From positions 1 to 43,689 of IMG/VR virus record IMGVR_UViG_3300045988_038444: 43,689 bases of DNA; one strand, given 5' to 3'. Numbering within the stretch: the stretch's first letter is position 1; each line of letters opens with the position of its first letter. The notes beneath the pieces are model-generated. The model had not been told where the DNA came from and did no database searches. It saw nothing but the letters and a program-made list of their open reading frames with translations. Of the stretch, positions 3,402-43,689 are shown piece by piece. The position numbers were made by a program, and so were the translations under genes. The stretch is from a virus (lineage: Duplodnaviria > Heunggongvirae > Uroviricota > Caudoviricetes).

Positions 3402-3744
3402 ACTCTGTTACATTGCCGGGCCTTATCGTGCTGATTGTGCGCTTAAAACATCCCGTAACGTGTCGCGCGCTGAACAGGCAGGTAAACGACTTGCTTTACA
3501 ACGTCCGGGGTGGTTCCCGGTTATCCCTCACAAGAACACCGAATTGTGGGACTTTGACGGCGGTTTACGCAATATACAACCCGAATACTACTTGTCAGGC
3601 ACATTAGAAGTTATGCGCCGTTGTGATGCCGTTCTGGTACTTCCTGATTATCGTCGTTCGTCCGGGACTATTGCGGAAATTGCAGAAGCTGAACGTCTGG
3701 GTATTCCTGTGTATTACAGTGTGGAGAGTATCCCACATGGTTGA
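3394..3744 (+). CDS. Nucleoside 2-deoxyribosyltransferase-like (DUF4406-like) protein (116 aa)
   Basis: Start trimmed to ATG 3394 with AGGA 8 nt upstream. The N-terminus has YIAGPYRAD and the segment VLVLPDYRRSSGTIAEIAEAERLGIPVY. Confidence 0.5.
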   Translation: MIKLCYIAGPYRADCALKTSRNVSRAEQAGKRLALQRPGWFPVIPHKNTELWDFDGGLRNIQPEYYLSGTLEVMRRCDAVLVLPDYRRSSGTIAEIAEAERLGIPVYYSVESIPHG

Positions 3745-4516
3745 TGTTAAGTTATTTAATCAAGATTGTTTGTTCATGATGAACTTCATTACTGAAAAAT
3801 CTATTGATTTAATTCTTACAGATCCTCCGTATGGTACAACTGCTTGCAAATGGGATTCGATAATAGATTTAGATTTAATGTGGTCAAATTTAAATCGAAT
3901 CATTACGGATAAAGGGGCAATCGTTCTTACGGCAACACAACCATTTGCAAGTATTTTAGTAAATTCAAACATCAAAATGTTTAAATACGATTGGGTGTGG
4001 AATAAATCAAAACGAACTGATTTTGTAAGAGCAAAACTAAAACCAATGGGTGGTCACGAAAGCGTTTTGGTTTTCAGTAAAGGTTCTGTTGCGAATGGTG
4101 CATCTTCAATGATGAACTATTACCCACAAGGTTTGAAACGTATTAATAAAGTAGCTAAAAACGGCGGCGGTGGTTCTGGTTTTTTGGGTCGTAATGGTGA
4201 AAATTTAGGACCAAATAACAAGCTACACAAACCTACGTATATTCAAGAATTTACAGGATACCCATGCACTCAATTGAATATTCAGAGTGAGAATAAAACA
4301 GTTCATCCCACGCAAAAACCTGTAGAGTTAATGGAATATCTTATTTTAACTTACACAAAAGAAGGTGATACGGTTTTAGATTTCACAATGGGTAGTGGAA
4401 CAACAGGTGTTGCTGCCGTGAAAACTAATCGTAATTTTATCGGTATAGAGTTAGATAAAGAATATTTCGAAATTGCTAATAAACGTATTAATTTGGCATT
4501 GATGGGTATTTACTAA
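3737..4516 (+). CDS. DNA methyltransferase (N6-adenine/N4-cytosine, beta-class order: motif IV DPPY before motif I FxGSGTT)
   Basis: Start trimmed to ATG 3737 with GGAGAG SD. Motifs ILTDPPYGT and DFTMGSGTTGVAA; C-terminal NFIGIELDKEY. Confidence 0.8.
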   Translation: MVDVKLFNQDCLFMMNFITEKSIDLILTDPPYGTTACKWDSIIDLDLMWSNLNRIITDKGAIVLTATQPFASILVNSNIKMFKYDWVWNKSKRTDFVRAKLKPMGGHESVLVFSKGSVANGASSMMNYYPQGLKRINKVAKNGGGGSGFLGRNGENLGPNNKLHKPTYIQEFTGYPCTQLNIQSENKTVHPTQKPVELMEYLILTYTKEGDTVLDFTMGSGTTGVAAVKTNRNFIGIELDKEYFEIANKRINLALMGIY

Positions 4517-5845: not shown

Positions 5846-6165
5846 TGCTTACTCCCGGTTTTACGTTGTTCCGCTTTCAAACCTTCAATAACAACTTTCA
5901 GGTCATTTGTTGACTGTGTTAGCTCTTTAACACTGGTGAGGATTTCAGCGTTCTGTGTTGCCTGATATTCAATTTTGATATCATGGACATCTACACGGGA
6001 TTCCACTCGTTTTGCCAGATTGAGCGCCTCGTGCGCATAGGTTTTTGCATCTACAATATCTTTTTCATTAGAATTGATTTGGTTTTGAGTTACCCCGTAA
6101 CCTACCAACCCCGTGGCAACAAATGCTATTATAGGCCAATACCTCAACACTGGGTTATCAGACAT
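5842..6165 (-). CDS. Lysis-associated membrane protein (holin/antiholin candidate, 107 aa)
   Basis: N-terminal TM helix then coiled-coil. It is the first gene of the lysis cassette, with AGGAG SD; the divergent tail-fibre ATG is only 27 bp away. Confidence 0.4.
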   Translation of the reverse strand: MSDNPVLRYWPIIAFVATGLVGYGVTQNQINSNEKDIVDAKTYAHEALNLAKRVESRVDVHDIKIEYQATQNAEILTSVKELTQSTNDLKVVIEGLKAEQRKTGSKQ

Positions 6166-6191
6166 TGTTCTACACTCCTGGAGACTTAAAG

Positions 6192-9164
6192 ATGGCTAAC
6201 TGTAACGATTATATCAGTGCTGATGATTTGAAAACAGGCAAACAAGCGATTTTACATATTGAACACGTTGCGAAAAGTCGTGATGCTAACGGTAATCATG
6301 CGTTGGATGTTACCGATACGATCCGTGATCAATCAGTTACCAACAAGACGCTTGATGGTTTAGAAAACCTGTACAATCAGGCTATATCTCAGGTTGGCTA
6401 TATCACAATGGATAGCTTCGAAGATGGCGCGACATTAACATTGCCTAACCAGGTGTTGCGATATAAGTCGACAGGAGAATATTACCGATGGGACGGTGAA
6501 TTTCCTAAAACCGTTTCTTCTGGTTCAACACCTGAAACTGCTGGTGGCGTTGGTCTTGGCGCGTGGGTTAGTGTTGGTGACGCTTCATTAAGAAGCCAGG
6601 TTTCTGACCCTGATGGCGCAACAAAATATCCAGATTTGCAGATCGCAAGATGGAGAGACACATTCGACCCGCGCGGGTGGAATGCAAAAGGTGATGGGGT
6701 CACCGATGACACCTCAGCGCTTAATGGCGTATTAAACGCCGCACCAGTTGGTCAGAAAATTAATGGCAATGGGAAGACATATAAGGTCACATCCCTGCCT
6801 GACATTAGTAGATTCGTCAATACTCGTTTTGTATATGAACGTATTCCTGGTCAGCCTCTTTTTTATGCTTCTGAAGATTTTATCCAGGGACAGTTATTTA
6901 AAATTACAGATACACCGTGGTACAACGCCTGGACGCAGGATAAAACGTTTGTATATGACAATGTCATCTATGCGCCTTTTATGGCTGGAGACCGCCATGG
7001 TGTAAATAACCTCCATGTTGCATGGGTTCGCTCAGGAGATGACGGGAAGACCTGGACAACGCCGGAATGGCTTACAGATTTACATGAAAACCATCCCACA
7101 GTTAACTATCACTGCATGAGTATGGGGGTTGTCAGAAATCGCCTTTTTGCTGTAATTGAGACGCGGACCGTGAGAGGAAATAAACTGCAGGTTGCAGAGT
7201 TGTGGGATCGCCCAATGAGTCGCAGCCTTCGCGTTTATGGTGGTATAACGAAAGCAGCAAATCAGCAAGTCGCTTATATTCGCATTACTGATCACGGATT
7301 ATTTGCTGGTGATTTTGTCAACTTCTCAAACTCTGGTGTTACAGGTGTTACCGGGAATATGACGGTGACTACTGTTATTGATAAAAATACTTTTACAGTT
7401 ACGACGCAAAATACCCAGGATGTGGATCAGAATAACGAGGGTGGATACTGGAGTTTTGGTACATCATTTCACTCGTCACCATGGAGAAAAACCAGTCTTG
7501 GAACTATTCCTTCTTTTGTTGACGGAAGCACTCCTGTTACTGAGATTCACAGTTTTGCGACGATTAGCGATAACAGTTTTGCTGTTGGCTACCATAATGG
7601 TGATATTGGTCCACGCGAGCTTGGGATACTCTATTTCTCTGATGCTTTCGGTTCTCCTGGTAGCTTTGTTCGCAGACGCATACCTGCAGAATATGAGGCG
7701 AATGCATCTGAGCCATGTGTAAAATATTATGATGGCATTCTGTATCTGACGACCAGGGGGACATTAAGTACTCAACCCGGTAGTTCATTGCACAGAAGCT
7801 CTGATTTAGGTATATCATGGAATTCTCTTCGCTTCCCAAATAATGTTCATCACTCAAACCTTCCTTTTGCCAAAGTTGGCGATGAGCTGATTATTTTTGG
7901 CAGTGAGCGCGCATTTGGTGAGTGGGAAGGAGGAGAACCTGATAACCGTTATGCAGGAAACTATCCAAGAACATTTATGACCAGAGTTAACGTCAATGAG
8001 TGGAGTCTGGATAATGTAGAGTGGGTTAATGTTACTGATCAGATTTATCAGGGCGGAATAGTTAACTCTGCGGTTGGTGTTGGTTCAGTTTGTATCAAAG
8101 ACAACTGGCTGTACTACATTTTCGGTGGGGAAGACTTTCTAAACCCATGGAGCATAGGGGATAACAACAAAAAATATCCTTATGTTCACGATGGTCACCC
8201 GGCTGATTTGTATTGTTTCAGGGTGAAAATTAAACAGGAAGAATTTGTTTCAAGGGATTTTGTCTACGGAGCCACTCCTAACAGAACGCTTCCTACTTTT
8301 ATGTCGACGTCAGGCGTGAGGACGGTTCCTGTACCCGTTGATTTCACAGATGATGTTGCCGTCCAGTCACTGACTGTCCATGCAGGTACATCAGGACAAG
8401 TTCGCGCGGAAGTCAAACTTGAGGGTAATTACGCCATTATTGCGAAGAAAGTACCGTCTGATAATGTTACCGCTCAGAGATTAATCGTTAGCGGCGGTGA
8501 AACAACGTCTTCAGCAGATGGTGCAATGATAACGTTGCATGGTTCCGGAAGCAGTACTCCACGTCGCGCGGTATATAACGCACTCGAACATCTTTTTGAG
8601 AACGGAGATGTTAAACCTCATCTTGATAATGTAAATGCTCTTGGTGGGCCTAGCAACCGTTTCACCACTGCATACCTCGGAAGCAACCCTATTGTTACTT
8701 CTAACGGAGAGAAGAAAACGGAGCCGGTAGTTTTTGATGATGCTTTCCTGGATGCCTGGGGTGACGTTCACTACATCATGTACAAGTGGTTAGATGCTAT
8801 TCAACTGAAAGGCAATGATGCTCGTATTCACTTCGGGGTTATTGCTCAGCAAATTCGTGATGTATTCATTGCACATGGTCTGATGGACGAAAACAGTACG
8901 GATTGTCGTTATGCCGTTCTGTGCTATGACAAGTATCCACGGATGACCGATATGGTATTTTCGCACAATGAAATCGTTGAACACACTGACGATGAGGGTA
9001 ATGTCACTACCACGGAAGAACCTGTATACACCGAGGTGGTTATTCACGAAGAGGGTGAGGAATGGGGTGTTCGGCCTGACGGAATTTTCTTTGCTGAAGC
9101 TGCTTATCAGCGAAGAAAACTGGAAAGAATCGAAGCCAGACTTTCTGCTCTTGAACAGAAGTAA
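6192..9164 (+). CDS. Tail fibre / putative endosialidase (endo-N-acetylneuraminidase) with a C-terminal intramolecular chaperone (peptidase S74-like) domain
   Basis: Two Asp-box (BNR) motifs, SGDDGKTW (~7030) and SSDLGISW (~7795). C-terminal ...DAWGDVHYIMYKWLDAIQLKGNDARIHFGVIAQQIRDVF...RLSALEQK is typical of autocleaving chaperone domains of endosialidases and T5 pb1. Start trimmed to ATG 6192 (GGAGA SD). Confidence 0.75.
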   Translation: MANCNDYISADDLKTGKQAILHIEHVAKSRDANGNHALDVTDTIRDQSVTNKTLDGLENLYNQAISQVGYITMDSFEDGATLTLPNQVLRYKSTGEYYRWDGEFPKTVSSGSTPETAGGVGLGAWVSVGDASLRSQVSDPDGATKYPDLQIARWRDTFDPRGWNAKGDGVTDDTSALNGVLNAAPVGQKINGNGKTYKVTSLPDISRFVNTRFVYERIPGQPLFYASEDFIQGQLFKITDTPWYNAWTQDKTFVYDNVIYAPFMAGDRHGVNNLHVAWVRSGDDGKTWTTPEWLTDLHENHPTVNYHCMSMGVVRNRLFAVIETRTVRGNKLQVAELWDRPMSRSLRVYGGITKAANQQVAYIRITDHGLFAGDFVNFSNSGVTGVTGNMTVTTVIDKNTFTVTTQNTQDVDQNNEGGYWSFGTSFHSSPWRKTSLGTIPSFVDGSTPVTEIHSFATISDNSFAVGYHNGDIGPRELGILYFSDAFGSPGSFVRRRIPAEYEANASEPCVKYYDGILYLTTRGTLSTQPGSSLHRSSDLGISWNSLRFPNNVHHSNLPFAKVGDELIIFGSERAFGEWEGGEPDNRYAGNYPRTFMTRVNVNEWSLDNVEWVNVTDQIYQGGIVNSAVGVGSVCIKDNWLYYIFGGEDFLNPWSIGDNNKKYPYVHDGHPADLYCFRVKIKQEEFVSRDFVYGATPNRTLPTFMSTSGVRTVPVPVDFTDDVAVQSLTVHAGTSGQVRAEVKLEGNYAIIAKKVPSDNVTAQRLIVSGGETTSSADGAMITLHGSGSSTPRRAVYNALEHLFENGDVKPHLDNVNALGGPSNRFTTAYLGSNPIVTSNGEKKTEPVVFDDAFLDAWGDVHYIMYKWLDAIQLKGNDARIHFGVIAQQIRDVFIAHGLMDENSTDCRYAVLCYDKYPRMTDMVFSHNEIVEHTDDEGNVTTTEEPVYTEVVIHEEGEEWGVRPDGIFFAEAAYQRRKLERIEARLSALEQK
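6204..6216 (-). promoter_or_regulatory. Candidate extended -10 promoter (CACTGATATAAT) for the lysis cassette, located inside the first codons of the tail-fibre gene
   Basis: The minus strand reads ...cagcacTGaTATAATcg... with the motif about 35-45 nt upstream of ATG 6165. The same motif recurs upstream of two other minus-strand genes. Confidence 0.4.
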
Positions 9165-9200: not shown

Positions 9201-9611
9201 TCAGAACGGAATGTCGTCTGAAAAGTCCATCGGAGGCTCATTGCCTCCTTGTGGGCTTTGTTGTTTTTGTGGCTGCTGTTGCTGATTTGTTACCCATCCG
9301 CCTTGAGGTTGTTGGCCTGATTGCTGGCGCGGTTGCTGACCAGAATCATCACGTTTACCACCAAGCATCTGCATAACGCCACCCATCTGTGGAATGACAA
9401 TCTCCGTAGTGTATCGGTCTACGCCGTTGCTGTCAGACCACTTACGAGTGTGCAGCTGTCCTTCGATATAAACCTGTGAACCTTTGCGAAGGTATTCTCC
9501 TGCAACTTCCGCAAGTTTCCCGAAGATGACTATGCGATGCCATTCAGTCTGTTCCTTCTTTTCTCCTGTTTGCTTGTCTTTCCACTGCTCAGATGTTGCA
9601 ACAAAAAACAA
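9201..9611 (-). pseudogene. ssb: N-terminally truncated SSB (residues ~35-178 of an E. coli-like SSB, with DDIPF tail); TTG start, no SD
   Basis: [39 protein letters not shown]...[11 protein letters not shown] is ~75-80% identical to E. coli SSB by recall. An in-frame TAA lies 9 nt upstream of the TTG, so the first OB-fold strand is absent. Confidence 0.6.
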
Positions 9612-16398: not shown

Positions 16399-17310
16399 AT
16401 GAGTAGGAAACGTTTAACCACAGAAGAGTTTATCACGCGTGCCCGTGAAGTTCATGGGCACAAATACGATTACTCACTAGTGGAGTATTTGAATTGGCGC
16501 ACACCTGTGAAAATCATCTGTCCTATACATGGAGTGTTTGAACAAATTCCTAATAATCATTTAAAAGGACGCAAGTGTTTATTCTGTGCAGGAAATCAAC
16601 AATCAAATACCAATGAATTTATCACAAGGGGGCGCGAAGTTCATGGGGGTAAGTATGGTTATTCGTTGGTGAAATATAAAGACTCTCGGACCAAAGTGAA
16701 AATCATTTGTCCAATACACGGAATGTTTGAACAACGTCCATATAGTCACTTGCAGCAAAAAGCAGGTTGCCCACAATGTGCTTGGGAACAATTGTCTGAA
16801 CAAAGACGTTTATCCGCCGAAGAATTCATTACTCGTGCTCGCGAAGTTCACGGGGACCGTTACGACTATTCGTTGGTGGAGTATGTTAACAATTCCACCC
16901 CTGTAAAAATTATTTGTTCAGAACACGGTGTGTTTGAACAGACACCGGGCAATCACACATTTATGAAAGCTGGCTGTCCCCAGTGCGCTGAAACAGGTTT
17001 TAATCCGTCAGAACCCGGCACGTTATATGTACTCGCTGATGATAAACAGTATCCCACTCTGATTAAAATTGGTATTACAAACGACTTAAAACAGCGACTA
17101 CGACAACTACAACGACGAACTCCGCATCTTGTGGTTAAACTTGTATCGTATCCGTTCCCACATGGCGCTGACGCTTACAAACTGGAACAAGAGGTACACA
17201 AGGTCTTTCACGAACTTAATGCGCGTCTCAAAGGCTTTGACGGTGCTACAGAGTGGTTTAAATACTCTCCTGCAATCCTCGATTACATAAATGAAAAAGC
17301 CCGGAACTAA
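16399..17310 (+). CDS. Homing-endonuclease-like protein HE-1: three N-terminal ~60-aa zinc-ribbon repeats + C-terminal T5orf172/GIY-YIG-like domain
   Basis: Three repeats of EEFITRAREVHGxKYDYSLVEY...KIICPIHGVFEQ...GCPQC. C-terminal GTLYVLADDKQYPTLIKIGITNDLKQRLRQLQRR. Inserted between the G/G-T chaperone genes and the tape measure. Confidence 0.6.
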   Translation: MSRKRLTTEEFITRAREVHGHKYDYSLVEYLNWRTPVKIICPIHGVFEQIPNNHLKGRKCLFCAGNQQSNTNEFITRGREVHGGKYGYSLVKYKDSRTKVKIICPIHGMFEQRPYSHLQQKAGCPQCAWEQLSEQRRLSAEEFITRAREVHGDRYDYSLVEYVNNSTPVKIICSEHGVFEQTPGNHTFMKAGCPQCAETGFNPSEPGTLYVLADDKQYPTLIKIGITNDLKQRLRQLQRRTPHLVVKLVSYPFPHGADAYKLEQEVHKVFHELNARLKGFDGATEWFKYSPAILDYINEKARN

Positions 17311-20759: not shown

Positions 20760-21184
20760 TGATTAAACCTCACCATTATTCCGGCTTTTAATATAGCACG
20801 TTCGACAAACCCGGAAGGTGTCTGTGTACTGCTACCACCATTGAGAACCCCAATGTAAGGAACGTTGTTAGTAATATGCAGTTCCTGACCATTAACTTTA
20901 ATACTGCTGATAGTGACTGTATCCTGTTCGATACGTGCTTTACTGGCTTCAACATTACCTGTTGGTGTATCAGGACTATTAGCGGGTTGCCCCTGATCGA
21001 ACCACCAGTTGTTGCTTGCCCAGCCACTCAATATTGGTGTACCATCAGGAGGCTCACTTATGAGTATGTTACGTAGTGTTAAAACATATCTAATGACTTG
21101 ACGATCCGTAAAATCTTGTAAGTCGGCTTTTATGTCTTTAAACACTCCAGTAATACGATTTATATCATTGATTTTGCTAGTCAT
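20756..21184 (-). CDS. Head-tail joining protein (HK97 gp10-like)
   Basis: Start trimmed to ATG 21184 to avoid overlap with the divergent HE-2; contains ISEPPDGTPILSGWASNNWW. Confidence 0.4.
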   Translation of the reverse strand: MTSKINDINRITGVFKDIKADLQDFTDRQVIRYVLTLRNILISEPPDGTPILSGWASNNWWFDQGQPANSPDTPTGNVEASKARIEQDTVTISSIKVNGQELHITNNVPYIGVLNGGSSTQTPSGFVERAILKAGIMVRFNQ

Positions 21185-21206
21185 TGACAAACCTAAAGGT
21201 AGAAAA

Positions 21207-22103
21207 ATGGGCGGTAAAAGACTAACCAAAGAACAACTAGAGCATAACATAAAAGATATTTGTCAATCAAAAAATTACAAATTTATAAAATGGAAAGACG
21301 GGTTTAAAAACAAAGAATCACGAATTATTTTATCTTGTGTTACACACGGGGAATGGGACACTAAATGTTATCATTTTTTGAATGGTTCTGGTTGTCCGAT
21401 CTGTGGTGGAACACGAACCACAAAAGGGTTAAGAATTGCACAGATTAAAGACAGTTTAACAAATTCTAAATCAAAGTTTATTAAATTTAAAACTAATTTT
21501 CAAAATGGAAATTCTGTTTGTTTGCTGAGCTGTATTGATCATGGTGGATGGGAGACAACAGTCAATAGACTAATCTTTACATCTGTTGATTGCCCGTTGT
21601 GTATAACGAATAGACAGAAAACTAAACAAGAACGAGAAATTGAAATAACAAATAGATGTAAAGAAACAGGGTTGTTTTTTAATAAGATATTCGACGAACA
21701 TCCGACATGGAAATCTAAAATATCATTAAAGTGTTCAACGCATGGTGATTTTGTTACAACAATTAATTCTTTTCTTAGTAAACAAAAAGGTTGTCCAAAC
21801 TGTAGTAAAACAGGGTTTAAAGCTGGTAAGTATGCAACACTTTATGTCTTGCGGTCCACATGCGGTCGTTACGTTAAAATAGGTATCAGTAATTGTGTAG
21901 AGCAAAGAATTAATACACTTCGTAGAAAAACACCATTTGATTTTCAAGTAATAGAAAAATTGAATGGACACGGGGCAACCATTCGTTCACTTGAAAAAGA
22001 TTTTCATTCTCATTTTGAATCTGCAGGATTAACCGGGTTCGATGGTTGTACAGAGTGGTTAAAATGGAATCCAAATATAACCACTCTGATACGGATGTTA
22101 TAG
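21207..22103 (+). CDS. Homing-endonuclease-like protein HE-2: three CxxHG...CPxC zinc ribbons + C-terminal T5orf172/GIY-YIG-like domain
   Basis: CVTHGEWDT..GCPICGG, CIDHGGWET..DCPLC and CSTHGDFVT..GCPNC. C-terminal ATLYVLRSTCGRYVKIGISNCVEQRINTLRRK...FDGCTEWLKWNPNITTLIRML. Start trimmed to ATG 21207. Confidence 0.6.
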   Translation: MGGKRLTKEQLEHNIKDICQSKNYKFIKWKDGFKNKESRIILSCVTHGEWDTKCYHFLNGSGCPICGGTRTTKGLRIAQIKDSLTNSKSKFIKFKTNFQNGNSVCLLSCIDHGGWETTVNRLIFTSVDCPLCITNRQKTKQEREIEITNRCKETGLFFNKIFDEHPTWKSKISLKCSTHGDFVTTINSFLSKQKGCPNCSKTGFKAGKYATLYVLRSTCGRYVKIGISNCVEQRINTLRRKTPFDFQVIEKLNGHGATIRSLEKDFHSHFESAGLTGFDGCTEWLKWNPNITTLIRML

Positions 22104-26568: not shown

Positions 26569-26978
26569 TATTCCACATCCTCATAATATGCAGTTCCACC
26601 GATACTATATCCCGTATATTCACCAGTCTGAAACTTTTTCAAAACTTCGTCATCAGTTATCAACGTACCAACAATGACGCCTGTCTGATCCAGTTTATCA
26701 ACCAGTCCAAAACTTGCTGCAATGTCTTCGGTCATCGGGAACGCAAACACAACTTTCCCAACAGGTTGTTGATTATGCATATTATCCATGATGCGCTGAT
26801 CAGAATTCATGAAGTCCAACCATGCTTTCAGAGTGACATCCTCGGGAAATTGCTCGTTGTCCGTGTCTGTGTAAATTTCTAACTGACCTGTCTCCTGATT
26901 ACGTTTTTTACAGATACTACCCCAACCGAATACCATACGTAGTGAGTTGTCAACCTTATTAACTTTTACGTTAATCAC
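26568..26978 (-). CDS. Hypothetical head-module protein (possible prohead protease, XkdF-like?)
   Basis: 136-aa protein between the HE fragment and the scaffold gene; the function call is weak. Confidence 0.3.
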   Translation of the reverse strand: MINVKVNKVDNSLRMVFGWGSICKKRNQETGQLEIYTDTDNEQFPEDVTLKAWLDFMNSDQRIMDNMHNQQPVGKVVFAFPMTEDIAASFGLVDKLDQTGVIVGTLITDDEVLKKFQTGEYTGYSIGGTAYYEDVE

Positions 26979-27385
26979 GGGGATTGTCCTCGTATTGTTT
27001 CAACATGACTAAATTCTAACATTTCGGATGAATAATTGCACTGGTGATACACGCTGTTTACAACGTTACCGAATATCTCAGAAAGATTCTTGATCGGTTC
27101 AACAGCAGTCGTTACTGGTTCAACAGCAGTCGTTACTGGTTCAACAGTAGTCGTTACCGGTTCAACAGTAGTCGTTACCGGTTCAACAGCAGTCGTTACT
27201 GGTTCAACAGCGTCCAGATGTTCAGCGACAACCTGGAAAAACACTGTGTTAGTTTCACGGTCAATAATAACCACTGTGCTGGAACTATCTTCAACAATGC
27301 TGAATGAGTAGTCGTAACGATCACCGTGAATTTTACGGGCGCGACGAATGAATTCGTCTGTAGCAACTCTGATGTTCGGATCCAT
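26975..27385 (-). CDS. Homing-endonuclease-related fragment: one EFIRRARKIHGDRYDYS module + (VEPVTTA)x6 repeat + short C-terminus; no nuclease domain
   Basis: DEFIRRARKIHGDRYDYSFS matches the HE-1 repeat. Start trimmed to ATG 27385 (AAGGG SD). Driven by the minus-strand promoter copy at 27416-27462. Confidence 0.5.
   Translation of the reverse strand: MDPNIRVATDEFIRRARKIHGDRYDYSFSIVEDSSSTVVIIDRETNTVFFQVVAEHLDAVEPVTTAVEPVTTTVEPVTTTVEPVTTAVEPVTTAVEPIKNLSEIFGNVVNSVYHQCNYSSEMLEFSHVETIRGQSP
27096..27215 (-). repeat. Tandem 21-bp repeat (ggttcaacagcagtcgttact, ~5.7 copies) encoding VEPVTTA heptads
   Basis: Copies at 27096, 27117, 27138, 27159 and 27180, plus a partial copy. Confidence 0.85.
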
Positions 27386-27415
27386 ACATTCAACCCTTCT
27401 TGTTCTCTTAACCAC

Positions 27416-27462
27416 AGGGTAGTTGTGTCGGTGTAATCCGTCAAGAATTATTTTGCGTATAG
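27416..27462 (-). promoter_or_regulatory. Early-type promoter copy on the MINUS strand (revcomp = CAAAATAATTCTTGACGGATTACACCGACACAACTACCCTGTGG), divergent from P3
   Basis: Near-identical (about 90%) to P3 over ~45 nt including the spacer; -35 CGTCAA at plus 27439-27444; -10 TACCCT. Confidence 0.65.
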
Positions 27463-27526: not shown

Positions 27527-27637
27527 ACTTATACTACTCTTCTATTTATCTATGTTTATTATGTTTTCTATAAAAAGATAACAAAAAGAATAAGATAGAG
27601 AGGGGTTGGTTAAAAAGTAAACATGACGAAATATATG
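27527..27637. repeat. Conserved ~105-bp intergenic element, copy A (core ttctataaaaagataacaaaaagaataagatagagaggggttggttaaaaagtaaacatgacgaaatatatg)
   Basis: About 90% identical to 42607-42713. Confidence 0.8.
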
Positions 27638-29104: not shown

Positions 29105-29178
29105 TGATTAACTTGGTTCGATGGCTGTACTGAGTGGTTAAAATGGAATCCAAATATAACCACTCTAATACGTATAAT
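29105..29178 (+). pseudogene. Remnant of a homing-endonuclease 3' end (~90% nt identity to the last 70 nt of HE-2; WFDGCTEWLKWNPNITTLIRIITG*)
   Basis: cttggttcgatggctgtactgagtggttaaaatggaatccaaatataaccactctaatacg versus HE-2 ccgggttcgatggttgtacagagtggttaaaatggaatccaaatataaccactctgatacg. Confidence 0.6.
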
Positions 29179-31419: not shown

Positions 31420-31923
31420 ATGACTAACCTGTATATCAAAAAACTAACACCCCACGCTGAACTTCCAACACGTGTAACACCAGACAGCGCCGGGTTAGAC
31501 GTTCGTGCTTGCCTATGGGAAGAATCGGTAACTATATTCACAGAATCAGGCGCTAAAGTGGAACGTCCGGTTGTTGCAGGAACAATCGCATTATGGCCCG
31601 GCGACCGCGCTATGATCCCCACTGGTCTGAAAATGTCAGTTGATAACGGATATTGCATTAAATTTTATCCACGTTCCGGCATGAGTCTTAAACACGGTTT
31701 GTCACTGATCAACTGTGTGGGTATCGGTGATCGTGATTACAAAGAAGAATACTACGTTACGCTGACTAACCACGGACAGAAATTACAGACTATCGCAGAC
31801 GGTGAACGCGTTTGCCAGCTTATGGTTGAACGTGTCGAACCTGTTAATCTGGTTGAAGTGGAAGAATTACCAGATGTTGATAGTCAGCGTAATGGCGGGT
31901 TTGGATCAACAGGACGGGTATGA
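31420..31923 (+). CDS. dut: dUTPase (deoxyuridine triphosphatase)
   Basis: Motifs AGLDVRA, YPRSGMSLKHG, GIGDRDYKEEYYV and QRNGGFGSTGR. Confidence 0.85.
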   Translation: MTNLYIKKLTPHAELPTRVTPDSAGLDVRACLWEESVTIFTESGAKVERPVVAGTIALWPGDRAMIPTGLKMSVDNGYCIKFYPRSGMSLKHGLSLINCVGIGDRDYKEEYYVTLTNHGQKLQTIADGERVCQLMVERVEPVNLVEVEELPDVDSQRNGGFGSTGRV

Positions 31924-39320: not shown

Positions 39321-39527
39321 ATGTTCAGATACGTTTTAAAATTACTCGCCATTATTGCAACATGGCTAATCATACAGTCCGGGTATGACCTGCGTGTTCG
39401 TAACCAATGTTCAGACTATCAACGCATTACACGAACTGCGACAATCTACAGTCACGGTATTTGTTACGCGGCAGACAGTGACGGACAGTTTAAAATAATT
39501 CTTGACGGTTTACACATCATCAGATAG
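39321..39527 (+). CDS. Small protein with an N-terminal TM/signal (68 aa); its C-terminus (..[13 protein letters not shown]) is encoded by promoter P8
   Basis: ATG 39321 with AGGAG SD. Confidence 0.4.
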   Translation: MFRYVLKLLAIIATWLIIQSGYDLRVRNQCSDYQRITRTATIYSHGICYAADSDGQFKIILDGLHIIR

Positions 39528-39530
39528 ACT
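39490..39530 (+). promoter_or_regulatory. Early promoter copy P8 (-35 TTGACG 39502-39507, -10 TAGACT)
   Basis: GTTTAAAATAATTCTTGACGGTTTACA lying inside the 3' end of the upstream ORF. Confidence 0.7.
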
Positions 39531-39562: not shown

Positions 39563-39829
39563 ATGTTTAAAACTGGTCAACACGTAGAAGTCACCAGTCC
39601 ACGACTGTTAGAAGTTCTCGCACGTCGCAAATCTAAACCGTTCGGCACTGTTGTAGCGGTCGATCCGCAAGCTGAATACCCGGTTAAAGTTCGCATCACT
39701 GACGATACAGGGTTTCAAATCCCCTTCACGTTCAACGGTGAACAGTGCGATTACACTTTCTCATTTACTATGAACGGTCATCATGACCATCGTAGCCTGA
39801 CACCTGATTTAAGAGTGGTGAATGTATGA
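39563..39829 (+). CDS. Hypothetical protein (88 aa)
   Basis: Start trimmed to ATG 39563 (GGAG SD). Confidence 0.45.
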   Translation: MFKTGQHVEVTSPRLLEVLARRKSKPFGTVVAVDPQAEYPVKVRITDDTGFQIPFTFNGEQCDYTFSFTMNGHHDHRSLTPDLRVVNV

Positions 39830-40068
39830 TGAGTACGAAAACAACAATTATCAACTGTTTTCGGAAAGTTACTGGGTACGATCCGAATGTAATTATCACC
39901 GCCAACGGTTTGTATTATTCGGTAGATAATTATGGTCTGAACAATACTTTATGGAGTGTTCCACCACAACAAATTATTACTGACCATAAACAACCACATC
40001 GTAAAACAGGTATTGCAAAAGCCCGACGCGATGCGAAGAAAAGAAGGAACCGGAAATTAAACGGTTGA
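39826..40068 (+). CDS. Hypothetical protein with a basic C-terminus (80 aa)
   Basis: ATGA-coupled start; C-terminal [26 protein letters not shown]. Confidence 0.45.
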
Positions 40069-40102: not shown

Positions 40103-41017
40103 ATGAACTTCTTTAAAAACGCTATTATTTATCGTCTGACTAATCCTATGGCACTAATGGCCCAGTTGCCAACACTGGAAGACAGCCTGTGTGCGTTTCA
40201 ATTCAATCCATGTGGTTCACAGGATATGGCGCGTACTGGTTGGGTTCCGGCAACTGAACAACATCATACGCTGGTTCACCAGGCTAATGGGCAATATCTG
40301 CTGACCATCCAGAAACAGGAAAAGATTATTCCTGGTCCGGTCATTAAACAGCATCTGAACGCGCGAATCGCCAAACTGGAAGCGGAACAGGCGCGTAAAC
40401 TGAAGAAAACAGAGAAAGATAGCCTGAAAGATGAAGTATTGCACAGTCTGTTACCACGAGCATTCGTTAAAAACAGTCGTACACAGTTGTGGATTGATAT
40501 CACTAGCGGGTTGATCGTGGTTGATGCGTCCAGTGCTAAACGGACTGAAGACGCATTAGCACTATTGCGTAAATCCCTGGGTAGTCTGCCAGTCGTCCCA
40601 CTGACAACTGAAAACCCTGTTGAACTGACAACAACGGAGTGGGTACGTTCAGGAAACGCGCCAACAGGTTTCACAATGGGTGATTCTGCGGAATTGAAAG
40701 CAATCCTGACTGACGGCGGTGTTGCACGCGTTAAAAAACAGGATTTAACCAGTGATGAAATAGCCACGCATATTGAAGCAGGAAAAGTTGTTACAAAACT
40801 GGCTCTGAACTGGCTGCAGCGGGTAACGTTTACGCTAACTGACAGCATGACGTTAAACCGTGTGAAATTCTGCGACGGGTTGCTCGACCAGAACGACGAT
40901 ATCGATCGTGAAGACAGTCTGACACGATTTGACGCTGATTTTGTACTAATGACAGGTGAACTTCAGGCGCTGATCAAACAACTTATCACTGCTTTGGGTG
41001 GGGAGGCTAAACGATGA
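40103..41017 (+). CDS. rdgC: Recombination-associated protein RdgC
   Basis: Strong end-to-end similarity to E. coli RdgC by recall (e.g. [105 protein letters not shown]). Confidence 0.85.
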
Positions 41018-41346
41018 GAACAGAACAGGAACGTATTATTCAGTGGTTATGTTCTGGTGAAACCGGACTAAGCTCTAAAACGATGGTCTGCATTCACACG
41101 GGTAATGAAATGGGTTACGGCTGGGAGTTTAGAGCACCCTTTGACGTTTCTGATTTTCGCCGTTGTTGGTTCCTGGTTGAAGCTGTGCCAGAAATCAGAA
41201 ACAGTTTTCCGTTGATTGCTGAAAAGTGTCCGGCGTTTAAAGGTGTGATTGAAAACTGGGACGTTATTAGCGCAGCTTATGAACGTGAACGCGGATCCGG
41301 TAAATGTCCTGAAACGTATCGGTTACTGAAAGAAAGTTTAAAATAA
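41014..41346 (+). CDS. Hypothetical protein (110 aa); its C-terminal ..SLK* is encoded by the UP element of P9
   Basis: Track ORF, ATGA-coupled to rdgC. Confidence 0.45.
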
Positions 41347-41378
41347 TTCTTGACGGGTTGCACAAGGAAGTGTAATAT
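41336..41378 (+). promoter_or_regulatory. Early promoter copy P9 (-35 TTGACG 41350-41355, ext -10 TGtTAATAT)
   Basis: GTTTAAAATAATTCTTGACGGGTTGCA. Confidence 0.7.
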
Positions 41379-41412
41379 TACCTCATTGAAACGAATTATG
41401 AGGAACCGGAAA

Positions 41413-41613: not shown

Positions 41614-41634
41614 CGCCCCGTAAGGGGCTTTCTT
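41614..41634. terminator. Rho-independent terminator between the + cassette and the TerS 3' end
   Basis: Hairpin GCCCCGTAAGGGGC + TTTCTT. Confidence 0.6.
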
Positions 41635-41697
41635 ATATCACCCTGTACCCTTGCACCACCCATCAACAGATCGTCGAAACGCAAACGGTTTCCGGCG

Positions 41698-42333
41698 TTA
41701 TTTAAGCGCTTTCTGATACAGTTGCGCGATGTCGTCAATAGTTGCACCTTCAGGAACACTCTGAACCACGTTTCCAACCACACCAGACAATTCCACACGG
41801 TCGATACTGTTCCCGGTGATCTTATCCAGTTGTTCAGACGCTTTTGCACGAGTTTTCGGGTCGAACAGTTCACGTGTCACCAGAATGTATCCACCCAGCA
41901 TGTAACGTTTGTAGCAAACTACGTACTGTTGTAGATGGCTGGGGATATCGTCGGTACTGTTCACCCACAGGTGTTTCGCTTCCGTGTCGTCTTCACCAGG
42001 AACGATGACACGCTGACAATACGGTTCCAGTAATTCTTCAGCCGTGCTTGCCGCTCGTTTCCACCACTCGACACGACTCGTTAACGATTCCCCTACAGAC
42101 TCAAGCGCATGACTTCCCATCGCGTCCAGATAGTTCAACACCTTCGTATTCGACAGGAGGCGATGTGCGGTCGTTGCAGCCGCTGCATCAGACGTGTGAC
42201 CCGGATAAGCCTCTAAAACACATCGCGTATTGCTGAAGCCGTTATTGACACGATCTAACCACAGGTTGGCGAACTTGAGCTGTTCCGGCGACAACTCCAG
42301 AGCAGCCCTTTTAGCCCGGTCTGAAATTTTCAT
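41698..42333 (-). CDS. Terminase small subunit (~211 aa)
   Basis: LSPEQLKFANLWLDRVNNGFSNTRCVLEAYPGHTSDAAAATTAHRLLSNTKVLNYLDAM fits the TerS HTH pattern. Start trimmed to ATG 42333 (GGGAGA SD). Confidence 0.65.
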   Translation of the reverse strand: MKISDRAKRAALELSPEQLKFANLWLDRVNNGFSNTRCVLEAYPGHTSDAAAATTAHRLLSNTKVLNYLDAMGSHALESVGESLTSRVEWWKRAASTAEELLEPYCQRVIVPGEDDTEAKHLWVNSTDDIPSHLQQYVVCYKRYMLGGYILVTRELFDPKTRAKASEQLDKITGNSIDRVELSGVVGNVVQSVPEGATIDDIAQLYQKALK

Positions 42334-42390
42334 AAATTTGTCTCCCATAAATTTTAAATTAGTTTCCCACAGATACCCACGGGTTGTCCA

Positions 42391-42570
42391 CACGCCCTGT
42401 TTTACAGCTAATACAATGTTAATATTAAGTTTACAGTTAGTGCACAATATGCATTAATTTTCGACTATATACATAAATACGTAGCCCATAATCACAATGA
42501 TTTCAAAGACTTGCATAAAAACATAGATTACAATAGGTATCTCCCAGACTTTTATTTTAGCTCTATTTAC
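42391..42570 (+). promoter_or_regulatory. Two copies of TTTACAGCTAATACA (42391-42405, 42556-42570), possibly -35 regions of rightward promoters
   Basis: Exact 15-mer repeat 165 bp apart. The first copy is followed at 16 nt by TATTAA. Confidence 0.3.
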
Positions 42571-42606: not shown

Positions 42607-42713
42607 TACTACTTCTTCTTTATATCTATGTTTTCTATGTTATCTATAAAAAGATAATAAAAAGAATAAGATAGAGAAGGGTCGGTTAAAAAATAAACAT
42701 GACGAAATCTATG
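42607..42713. repeat. Conserved ~105-bp intergenic element, copy B
   Basis: About 90% identical to 27527-27637 (..tctataaaaagataataaaaagaataagatagagaagggtcggttaaaaaataaacatgacgaaatctatg). Confidence 0.8.
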
Positions 42714-42944: not shown

Positions 42945-43689
42945 ATGAAAAAGAACCTTTTAGACGAATTAATAGATTTAAAAGGCGGGGTACAAAACGC
43001 TGTTGAATACCTTAATCGTCGAGGTGTTAAGGTGACTGTTGGTCGTTACAACCAATGGTTAAGCGGTAGGTTTCATCCTAAATATGAAACGATCAGTATT
43101 ATTCTTGAAGAGATTACTGACTTCACACTGTCACCCTTGCCAGTACAACATTCTGACGAAAACATTGTTCTTAAACACACAATACCGGTTACCGAACTGC
43201 GTCAGAAATTACCACACAGACGTTTTGCTAATAACTACTGGCAACGTGTCAGATACGTTGATTCACAGATCCTGGAAGCTGTTCACGGTCACGACGTGTG
43301 GACACGGTTTGAGGCGATGTGTGGTAATTTTGAATGTGCAAGATATGTGCTACGCAGAAATTTAAACGAACACACAATTACTGACAGTTGGATTCAAAAT
43401 GGTTTGCGCCGGGGATGGATCCCGGAATGTGTAAACGTAATGGTCGATTTGCTTGAAAAATACGAAGGCACCGGGACACCGTTTAACGTAATGGTTTGTG
43501 AACCACCTGTATCACGAGTGGAACCACCTGTATCACGAGTGGAAGCACCTGTATCACGAGTGGAACCACCTGTATCACGAGTGGAAGCACCTGTAGCACG
43601 AGTTGAAGCACCTGTAGCACGATTTGAACCGCCTGTAGTCGATGTCAGCGATTTGAAGGAGAAAATCAGACTGTATGCGTTATCACACA
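42945..43689 (+). CDS. Partial CDS (N-terminal 248 aa; no stop inside the window): HTH-like N-terminal region, then a (VEPPVSR/VEAPVAR)n repeat linker; probably continues in the partial ORF at 1..249
   Basis: ATG 42945; the frame is open to the window end; MKKNLLDELIDLKGGVQNAVEYLNRRGVKVTVGRYNQWLSGRF... Confidence 0.5.
   Translation, partial: MKKNLLDELIDLKGGVQNAVEYLNRRGVKVTVGRYNQWLSGRFHPKYETISIILEEITDFTLSPLPVQHSDENIVLKHTIPVTELRQKLPHRRFANNYWQRVRYVDSQILEAVHGHDVWTRFEAMCGNFECARYVLRRNLNEHTITDSWIQNGLRRGWIPECVNVMVDLLEKYEGTGTPFNVMVCEPPVSRVEPPVSRVEAPVSRVEPPVSRVEAPVARVEAPVARFEPPVVDVSDLKEKIRLYALSH
43500..43640 (+). repeat. Tandem 21-bp repeat (gaaccacctgtatcacgagtg, ~6.7 copies with drift) inside coding sequence
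   Basis: Copies at 43500, 43521, 43542, 43563, 43584 and 43605, plus a partial copy. Confidence 0.85.

Follow-up and report, generated by a model that had tools for sequence, protein, structure and literature searches.

Why should a phage carry a gene for RdgC, known from Escherichia coli as a RecA-antagonist DNA-binding protein, and did it take that gene from the host it infects? The questions are raised by an open reading frame (ORF) on the + strand, at 40103..41017, of the 43,689-nucleotide (nt) virus record IMGVR_UViG_3300045988_038444, the whole of which we refer to as the window. The original prediction for this locus was a phage-encoded RdgC with very high similarity to the host protein, of a kind rarely reported in phages, which, together with an E. 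coli-like SSB remnant, pointed to repeated capture of host genes in early cassettes driven by a conserved promoter. Our comparisons lead to a different account. As judged by identity, codon usage and tree position, this rdgC is an old phage-lineage gene of 9NA-like siphoviruses infecting Escherichia, Salmonella and Klebsiella, related to the RdgC of the Enterobacterales and long separate from the host gene. The useful outcome is that the similarity to the host can be traced to an old phage lineage of the gene, which evolves on its own under purifying selection.

The ORF encodes a full-length RdgC

The ORF runs from ATG to TGA, encodes 304 amino acids (aa) and has an AGGA Shine-Dalgarno motif 8 nt 5′ of the ATG. 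The predicted protein matches Pfam PF04381 with 383.9 bits (cut-off 25) over model positions 2-298 of 298, and passes the cut-off of NCBIfam NF001462 (412 bits; cut-off 330); the best-scoring NCBIfam model is NF001460, at 468 bits under its cut-off of 501. With phmmer, residues 2-304 match the crystal structure of E. coli RdgC (2owl_A, E = 4.8e-127), the Pseudomonas aeruginosa protein is also found (2owy, E = 3.4e-66), and PHROG 724 (‘exonuclease recombination-associated’) matches with E = 2.9e-125. By these profiles the ORF clearly encodes a full-length, canonical RdgC, and the coordinates predicted for it proved exact. E. coli RdgC (PDB 2OWL; P36767) has 303 aa against the 304 of the phage protein, belongs to the same Pfam family and aligns with it from end to end; unlike the E. 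coli protein, that of the window is phage-borne, is encoded behind a phage promoter and has one third of its residues changed.

The Pfam description of PF04381 is ‘putative exonuclease’, and this label is found in many phage annotations. Moore et al. reportedly saw no nuclease activity in purified RdgC in 2003. The protein is described purely as a non-specific DNA-binding ring in PMC11077077, PMC1885664 and PMC2965237.

The phage gene is far from its host counterpart

Aligned globally, the phage protein and the chromosomal RdgC of E. coli are identical at 201 of 302 residues (66.6%), a similarity that is substantial and full-length. The codon-aligned DNA identity is 63.9%, the same codon is used at just 47.8% of the residues that are identical between the two proteins, and the proportion of synonymous differences (pS, Nei-Gojobori) is 0.75, meaning that synonymous sites are saturated. 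The G+C content at third codon positions (GC3) is 0.436 in the phage gene versus 0.586 in E. coli rdgC; with 42.9% G+C in the whole window, the former value is phage-like. When the gene was compared by blastn with 5,426 complete E. coli genomes, the chromosomal gene was found at about 70% identity over 68-77% of the query, and no place in these genomes covers 80% of the phage gene. These values do not bear out a ‘very high similarity’ to the host. The result named in advance as one that would overturn that claim was a low identity when the proteins were properly aligned; the identity we find is moderate, not very high, and goes about half of that way.

The same numbers bear on one possible origin for the gene, which is recent capture: a near-copy of E. 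coli rdgC, acquired through illegitimate recombination and set behind a phage promoter. Membership in the same family and the full-length match to E. coli RdgC fit this idea, as does one segment of the protein. Specifically, the finger region has 97% protein identity to E. coli RdgC and shares 30 of 47 codons with it, versus 57 of 146 elsewhere in the gene (Fisher p = 0.004). However, this excess of shared codons recurs against Photorhabdus (59-65%) and Enterobacter, is not seen against Salmonella or Klebsiella rdgC, and leaves 36% of synonymous codons different from E. coli even within the finger region. For these reasons we rejected a mosaic origin by gene conversion with the host, and we attribute the excess to codon bias in a Lys/Glu/Leu-rich segment.

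The marks of recent transfer (unsaturated synonymous sites, host-like codons and a host-like GC3) are absent from the phage rdgC, so that the codon-usage and GC comparison with E. coli rdgC, proposed as a check on the original prediction, came out against it. Also opposed to capture are the equal distance of the phage protein (63-66%) from the RdgCs of Escherichia, Salmonella, Klebsiella, Photorhabdus, Erwinia and Pantoea and its place in the tree described below. We regard recent capture as extremely improbable and, for E. coli as the donor, as refuted by these comparisons; the similarity to the host is, on this evidence, that of an old homologue and not of a recently copied host gene.

An old gene of 9NA-like phages

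The window is that of a 9NA-like siphovirus (Nonanavirus/Sashavirus). Most of the part from 20000 to 43689 is about 95% identical to Escherichia phages PDP46, AVIO78A and PJ16, and the gene is phage-borne. Orthologues of rdgC are present in these three phages, in phage Bas82, in Salmonella phages Sergei, Solent, SP-062 and SP069, and in several Klebsiella phages, with DNA identities from 93% down to 76%. At the protein level, identity to the window RdgC is 94% in PJ16 (an E. coli phage), 84% in SP069 (Salmonella) and 77% in phi_KPN_H2 (Klebsiella), and the divergence within the phage clade tracks the phage and its host genus. The gene is already known in this group, being annotated as RdgC or recombination-associated protein in the closest relatives; the orthologues include PJ16_006, SP069_00015 (‘RdgC exonuclease’), Bas82_0099 and the genes of Klebsiella phages Kpn BU9 and VLCpiS10a. 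In PJ16, SP069, KPN_H2 and Bas82 it also lies just before terS and is accompanied by the same promoter motif. The small genes 5′ of rdgC differ between these phages, with four in PJ16 and two in the window.

In a database of 5.8 billion proteins, the best 120 homologues are 79-94% identical to the window RdgC, all lie on phage-sized contigs (at most 61.6 kb), and in 120 of 120 the reading frame is intact, at 303-307 aa. A scan of one bacterial genome per species placed the chromosomal RdgCs of Escherichia, Salmonella, Klebsiella, Enterobacter, Citrobacter, Kosakonia, Photorhabdus, Erwinia, Pantoea and others at 63-66% identity to the phage protein, and none in that scan was closer. In an identity matrix, the sampled Enterobacterales RdgCs are 76-92% identical among themselves, and the phage clade stands at an even 63-66% to every one of these hosts.

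A neighbour-joining tree gives the same picture: the RdgCs of 9NA-like phages are monophyletic in 200 of 200 bootstraps, and the chromosomal Enterobacterales clade excludes them in 187 of 200. The window protein therefore lies outside the chromosomal Enterobacterales group both by branching and by its NF001460 score (468 bits against the cut-off of 501). The phylogeny with phage homologues, which had been suggested as a further check, thus speaks against recent capture as well, and the case against it from E. coli follows from the 66.6% identity, the branching outside the chromosomal clade and the phage-like GC3 taken together. Several features of the tree temper this: it holds 25 sequences, without chromosomal genes of Vibrio, Pasteurella or Yersinia; the branching order relative to HrdC, the RdgC homologue of phage P1, has a support of 21/200; and a fast-evolving phage branch could be drawn artificially toward the base. 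A comparison of shared derived states for an origin inside the Enterobacteriaceae had just 2 informative columns.

RdgC in other phages

RdgC had been described as rarely reported in phages. By tblastn, homologues are found in 484 of 50,697 phage records (about 1%), from phages of dozens of host genera, led by Vibrio (265), Pseudomonas (45), Klebsiella (36), Escherichia (21), Proteus (20) and Salmonella (15). With PHROG 724, the annotations in the relatives and a named homologue in phage P1, RdgC is not common in phages but has been well described there, and calling the gene contributes little on its own. The P1 gene, hrdC, adjoins dmt, and many of the 579 plasmid matches in the E. coli genomes come from P1-type plasmids. 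Like the window protein, P1 HrdC is a full-length RdgC homologue of an enterobacterial phage that keeps the finger, gate and horseshoe residues; it differs in being 57-59% identical to the window RdgC, in forming a separate branch and in belonging to a temperate phage-plasmid. RdgC homologues have also been described in some lambdoid phages (PMC12315714).

The RdgC of Pseudomonas phage LKA5 is 65% identical to P. aeruginosa RdgC and 41% identical to the window RdgC; in the region examined (locus L086, 2468-5006), its gene lies between ssb and a gene annotated as a nucleoid-associated protein. This pattern of identities suggests independent, long-ago acquisitions of RdgC by different phage lineages, each from its own host group. 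In a broad sense, the view that phages hold RdgC genes of host origin is therefore upheld, whereas a recent capture from E. coli in this phage is not.

Functional residues are conserved and the gene is under selection

We asked which of the residues characterised in bacterial RdgCs are kept in the phage protein. In E. coli RdgC, the basic fingertip residues R97, K98, K100 and K101 are needed for loading on circular DNA (PMC2965237), and the dimer interfaces contain R118 and F120 at the gate and Q212, E218, H222 and K227 at the horseshoe (PMC2965237, PMC1885664). The four fingertip residues are identical in the window RdgC (its own positions 98, 99, 101 and 102), and so are 6/6 of the gate and horseshoe residues, in this protein and in its phage orthologues; all 10 residues tested by mutagenesis in E. 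coli are thus identical in the alignment with the window protein. In P. aeruginosa RdgC, mutation of basic residues of the central hole (R4, K70, R81, R122, K146, R198, R208, R252) lowered binding to double-stranded DNA (dsDNA; PMC1885664), and the window protein has K or R at 8/8 of the aligned sites. From its 66.6% full-length identity to 2OWL, we predict that it forms a ring-shaped homodimer that binds dsDNA and single-stranded DNA (ssDNA) non-specifically.

These features also bear on whether the protein acts as lambda RexA might, in exclusion or as a lifecycle switch. Lambda RexA shares the domain folds of RdgC and binds DNA non-specifically, and the structural homology of the two is published (PMC11077077); in addition, lambdoid RdgC homologues beside cI have been proposed to act in superinfection exclusion or in the control of the lifecycle (PMC12315714). 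However, the window protein is a canonical RdgC of full length, with 66.6% identity to that of E. coli and intact ring-interface residues, and not a divergent RexA-like protein. No domain is recognised in the neighbouring genes, hence no RexB-like partner is evident, and within the window rdgC does not lie beside a repressor gene, being part of a putative early unit between terL and terS. We consider a RexA-like function improbable.

Among copies of rdgC from E. coli, Salmonella and Klebsiella phages, the ratio of nonsynonymous to synonymous substitution rates (dN/dS) is 0.10-0.14, with dS up to 1.4; the gene is under purifying selection in the phage clade. This matters for the idea that rdgC is a decaying, non-functional passenger in a hypervariable region. 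Consistent with a dispensable gene, rdgC is accessory, as 9NA and Sasha have the promoter motif and no rdgC in their terS-terL region, and hrdC of P1 was scored as non-essential in a CRISPR interference (CRISPRi) screen (PMC10695390). Decay is nevertheless contradicted by the purifying selection, by the intact frame of the best 120 homologues and by the conservation of every functional residue that we mapped, and we give it hardly any credence.

The rdgC unit and its putative promoter

The third gene of four in a tightly packed unit, rdgC lies between terL and terS in a segment that spans two copies of a conserved repeat, at 39490 and 41338. The features of the unit and its boundaries are:

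39490..39530, + strand, promoter copy heading the unit, with the invariant A/T-rich block TTAAAATAATTC (repeat family D1/D5)
39563..39829, + strand, first gene, 88 aa, GGAG 5′ of the ATG
39826..40068, + strand, second gene, 80 aa, with a basic C-terminus; start and 88-aa-gene stop overlap in ATGA
40103..41017, + strand, rdgC, third gene, 304 aa
41014..41346, + strand, fourth gene, 110 aa, phrog_1229 (E = 5.5e-39); its ATGA start overlaps the rdgC stop
41338..41379, + strand, next promoter copy and 3′ boundary of the unit, overlapping the end of the 110-aa gene
41615..41638, + strand, terminator-like hairpin GCCCCGTAAGGGGC (41615-41628; 5/5 G-C pairs) with a T-rich tail, found by pattern match

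The repeat, TTAAAATAATTCTTGAC, occurs in nine exact copies in the window, all on the + strand, against 0.02 expected by chance:

16147, 18093, 27743, 31344, 32486, 34709, 38128, 39490 and 41338, + strand, exact matches to TTAAAATAATTCTTGAC

Alignment of the nine copies shows 21 invariant columns, made up of the A/T-rich block, a TTGAC -35 element and TT.CA just 3′ of it, followed by a variable -10 after a 17-nt spacer. In the copy that heads the rdgC unit, the -35 hexamer is TTGACG (39502-39507) and the -10 hexamer, again after 17 nt, is TAGACT (39525-39530). From this arrangement we infer a sigma-70-type promoter, and the prediction that a conserved promoter heads the rdgC unit is borne out. 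The units headed by these copies are dispersed over the + strand, and many sit between structural and packaging genes of the - strand. The 17-nt invariance, which includes the A/T-rich block 5′ of the -35, is stricter than a sigma-70 promoter needs, while the -10 hexamers vary; possible reasons are an UP element, a site for a regulator or the boundaries of cassette exchange. A single degenerate copy, mismatched at 2 positions, is found on the - strand (27440-27456). The hairpin at 41615 is the first G+C-rich terminator-like site 3′ of rdgC on the + strand and stands between the putative early genes of that strand and the convergent terS.

The neighbours of rdgC have no recognisable domain. The 88-aa gene has no match in Pfam, PHROG or PADLOC; the 80-aa gene has none in Pfam, and its PHROG matches are weak and confined to the basic C-terminal tail; and the 110-aa gene has none in the PDB or Pfam. 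With no meaningful PADLOC or Pfam match among them, we set aside a defence or anti-defence identity for these genes. The ATGA overlap at 41014 makes it probable that the 110-aa gene is translationally coupled to rdgC. The 259 phage records with homologues of phrog_1229, HK022 and Stx phages among them, mostly have no rdgC next to the homologue, and in Vibrio phages that have both genes the two are about 17 kb apart; a functional linkage of rdgC with phrog_1229 was set aside on this account.

A possible role as a DNA clamp

What use is a RecA-antagonist DNA clamp to the 1% or so of phages that have one? The reading that we favour, at a probability of roughly 0.6, is that the window encodes a working, phage-adapted RdgC that serves as an accessory early DNA clamp and limits the action of RecA. 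When bound to DNA, E. coli RdgC limits strand exchange by RecA and the cleavage of LexA (Drees et al. 2006, cited in PMC11077077), and the inhibition of RecA requires tight DNA binding (PMC2965237). By analogy with this biochemistry of the E. coli and P. aeruginosa proteins, host RNA polymerase would transcribe the rdgC unit early in infection, and the finger domain would load RdgC dimers onto DNA. There they would hold back the growth of RecA filaments, strand exchange and the cleavage of LexA, keeping host RecA and RecFOR off gapped or branched intermediates of phage replication. SOS would be damped, and recombination would be left to a RecA-independent annealase/exonuclease pathway of the phage.

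Such a pathway appears to be encoded. The first 246 nt of the window are the C-terminus of a Gp2.5-like annealase, 90.9% identical to that of Bas82_0067, and in Bas82 the annealase gene is flanked by an exonuclease gene and a DNA polymerase gene. The phage has a Gp2.5-like annealase, an exonuclease and a DNA polymerase of its own, and the Gp2.5-like annealase is its working ssDNA-binding protein.

A more pointed version of the same reading makes the phage RdgC a dedicated counter-measure. It would clamp phage DNA early, block RecA filaments on replication intermediates, prevent SOS and its consequences, and force recombination through the phage annealase and exonuclease. The analogy here is with PsiB, which, with SSB, is encoded in the leading regions of conjugative plasmids, is expressed early upon entry and restrains RecA and SOS. 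The likeness would lie in a mobile element that makes an early factor restraining RecA and SOS; PsiB itself is unrelated to RdgC and binds RecA directly, whereas RdgC acts by occupying DNA. We consider this version less likely than not. If it were true, the protein would prevent the induction of competing resident prophages and of defences triggered by SOS or RecA, and the roughly 1% of phages with RdgC would share an anti-SOS strategy.

The conservation of the DNA-binding and loading residues would serve a clamp that works independently of RecA just as well. Such a clamp might protect ends or forks from host nucleases and helicases, block the restart of host replication or act in a nucleoid-type takeover, with RecA inhibition incidental. 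Beyond the fully conserved residues, this idea can draw on the genetic interactions of E. coli RdgC with PriA/PriB restart and RecFOR (PMC11077077) and on the position of the LKA5 gene between ssb and a nucleoid-associated-protein gene. However, both it and RecA antagonism depend on the same DNA binding, nothing here separates them, and the neighbours in the unit lack a recognisable nuclease-inhibitor or takeover domain. We view a RecA-independent function as rather unlikely, and return to the accessory early clamp that limits RecA.

Several points count against that reading. The early timing of rdgC is inferred solely from promoter type and strand. The first 30 N-terminal residues are only 37% identical to E. 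coli RdgC, and partner interactions could therefore differ. As 9NA and Sasha do without the gene, any benefit would be conditional, and the non-essential hrdC of P1 points the same way. Lastly, a full-text literature search found no experimental study of the function of a phage RdgC. The question can be tested, as Bas82 (KarinMuster), which bears an orthologue, can be obtained from the public BASEL collection and grows on E. coli K-12 in which the O16-type O-antigen has been restored.

The SSB fragment at the tailspike locus

The remnant of an SSB gene had been read together with rdgC as support for repeated host capture in early cassettes. It lies outside the rdgC unit, beside a tailspike gene:

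6165-9164, + strand, endosialidase tailspike (Pfam End_beta_propel, 767 bits; End_tail_spike; End_N_terminal; Peptidase_S74)
9201..9611, - strand, truncated ssb, without about 27 N-terminal residues

The fragment stands between a tail-tip (J-like) gene and the endosialidase tailspike gene, is convergent with the latter and is not 3′ of any copy of the conserved promoter. Stop codons lie 5′ of it, it matches Pfam SSB over model positions 28-101 of 104, and it keeps the C-terminal DFSDDIPF. In a tblastn search with E. coli SSB, residues 29-178 aligned at 57.6% identity; in contrast, the fragment is 94.6% identical in DNA to Shuimuvirus IME207, and 3 of 133 aligned residues differ between its translation and the IME207 SSB. 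In IME207, a full 166-aa ssb is convergent with a tail-fibre gene. The remnant is thus real, and it is closer to a phage gene than to that of E. coli; on this evidence it is a scar of phage-to-phage exchange of a tailspike module, neither captured from the host nor driven by the promoter. This is the second useful outcome of the analysis, as what appeared to support repeated host capture is a by-product of inter-phage exchange.

The truncation point is the same in Bas82 (locus L093, 2146-2538), where the sequence begins LVFVATSEQ, against LFFVATSEQ in the window. Both fragments have stayed open, for 136 aa in the window and 130 aa in Bas82, despite about 11% DNA divergence, and the DDIPF tip is kept. 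The fragment might therefore be more than a scar, for instance a decoy that draws in the host partners of the SSB tail, or a conserved stretch of homology at which tailspikes are swapped.

The endosialidase tailspike suggests that the phage targets a polysialic-acid (K1-type) capsule. Bas82 differs in depending on the restored O16-type O-antigen and in having a different tail-fibre gene at this locus.

Other features of the window

Four further genes lie on the + strand:

3623-4516, + strand, DNA methyltransferase-like gene (phrog_67), 3′ of the polymerase gene
16399-17310, + strand, homing-endonuclease-like gene, among structural genes
21132-22103, + strand, second homing-endonuclease-like gene, among structural genes
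31420-31923, + strand, dUTPase gene (Pfam dUTPase, 66.5 bits), in another promoter-headed unit

The dUTPase and methyltransferase-like genes are further accessory genes of nucleotide and DNA metabolism. Of the homing-endonuclease-like pair (T5orf172/DUF723; phrog_681), the gene at 16399-17310 lies behind a copy of the conserved promoter. Repeats at 17233-17263, 22027-22096 and 29106-29175 are linked to the homing-endonuclease-like genes; specifically, a 70-nt match to the 3′ terminus of the second of them is found again at 29106-29175, directly 3′ of a head-morphogenesis gene, and may be the remnant of a third endonuclease insertion.

Three tandem repeats are in frame. The first (1-117) falls in the linker of the Gp2.5-like protein and has a 30-nt unit that specifies PVAAPTPAAA, present in more copies in Bas82; the second (27067-27231) has a 21-nt unit inside a - strand ORF at 26975-27415; and the third (43479-43646), also with a 21-nt unit, lies partly within a - strand ORF at 43483-43620 at the window end. 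In addition, a 100-nt A/T-rich direct repeat with 90% identity is found at 27538-27637 and 42614-42713. Its copies are 5′ of two - strand blocks, one ending with the ORF at 26975-27415 and the other being terS (41698-42447), making it a candidate for a shared regulatory region of late operons.

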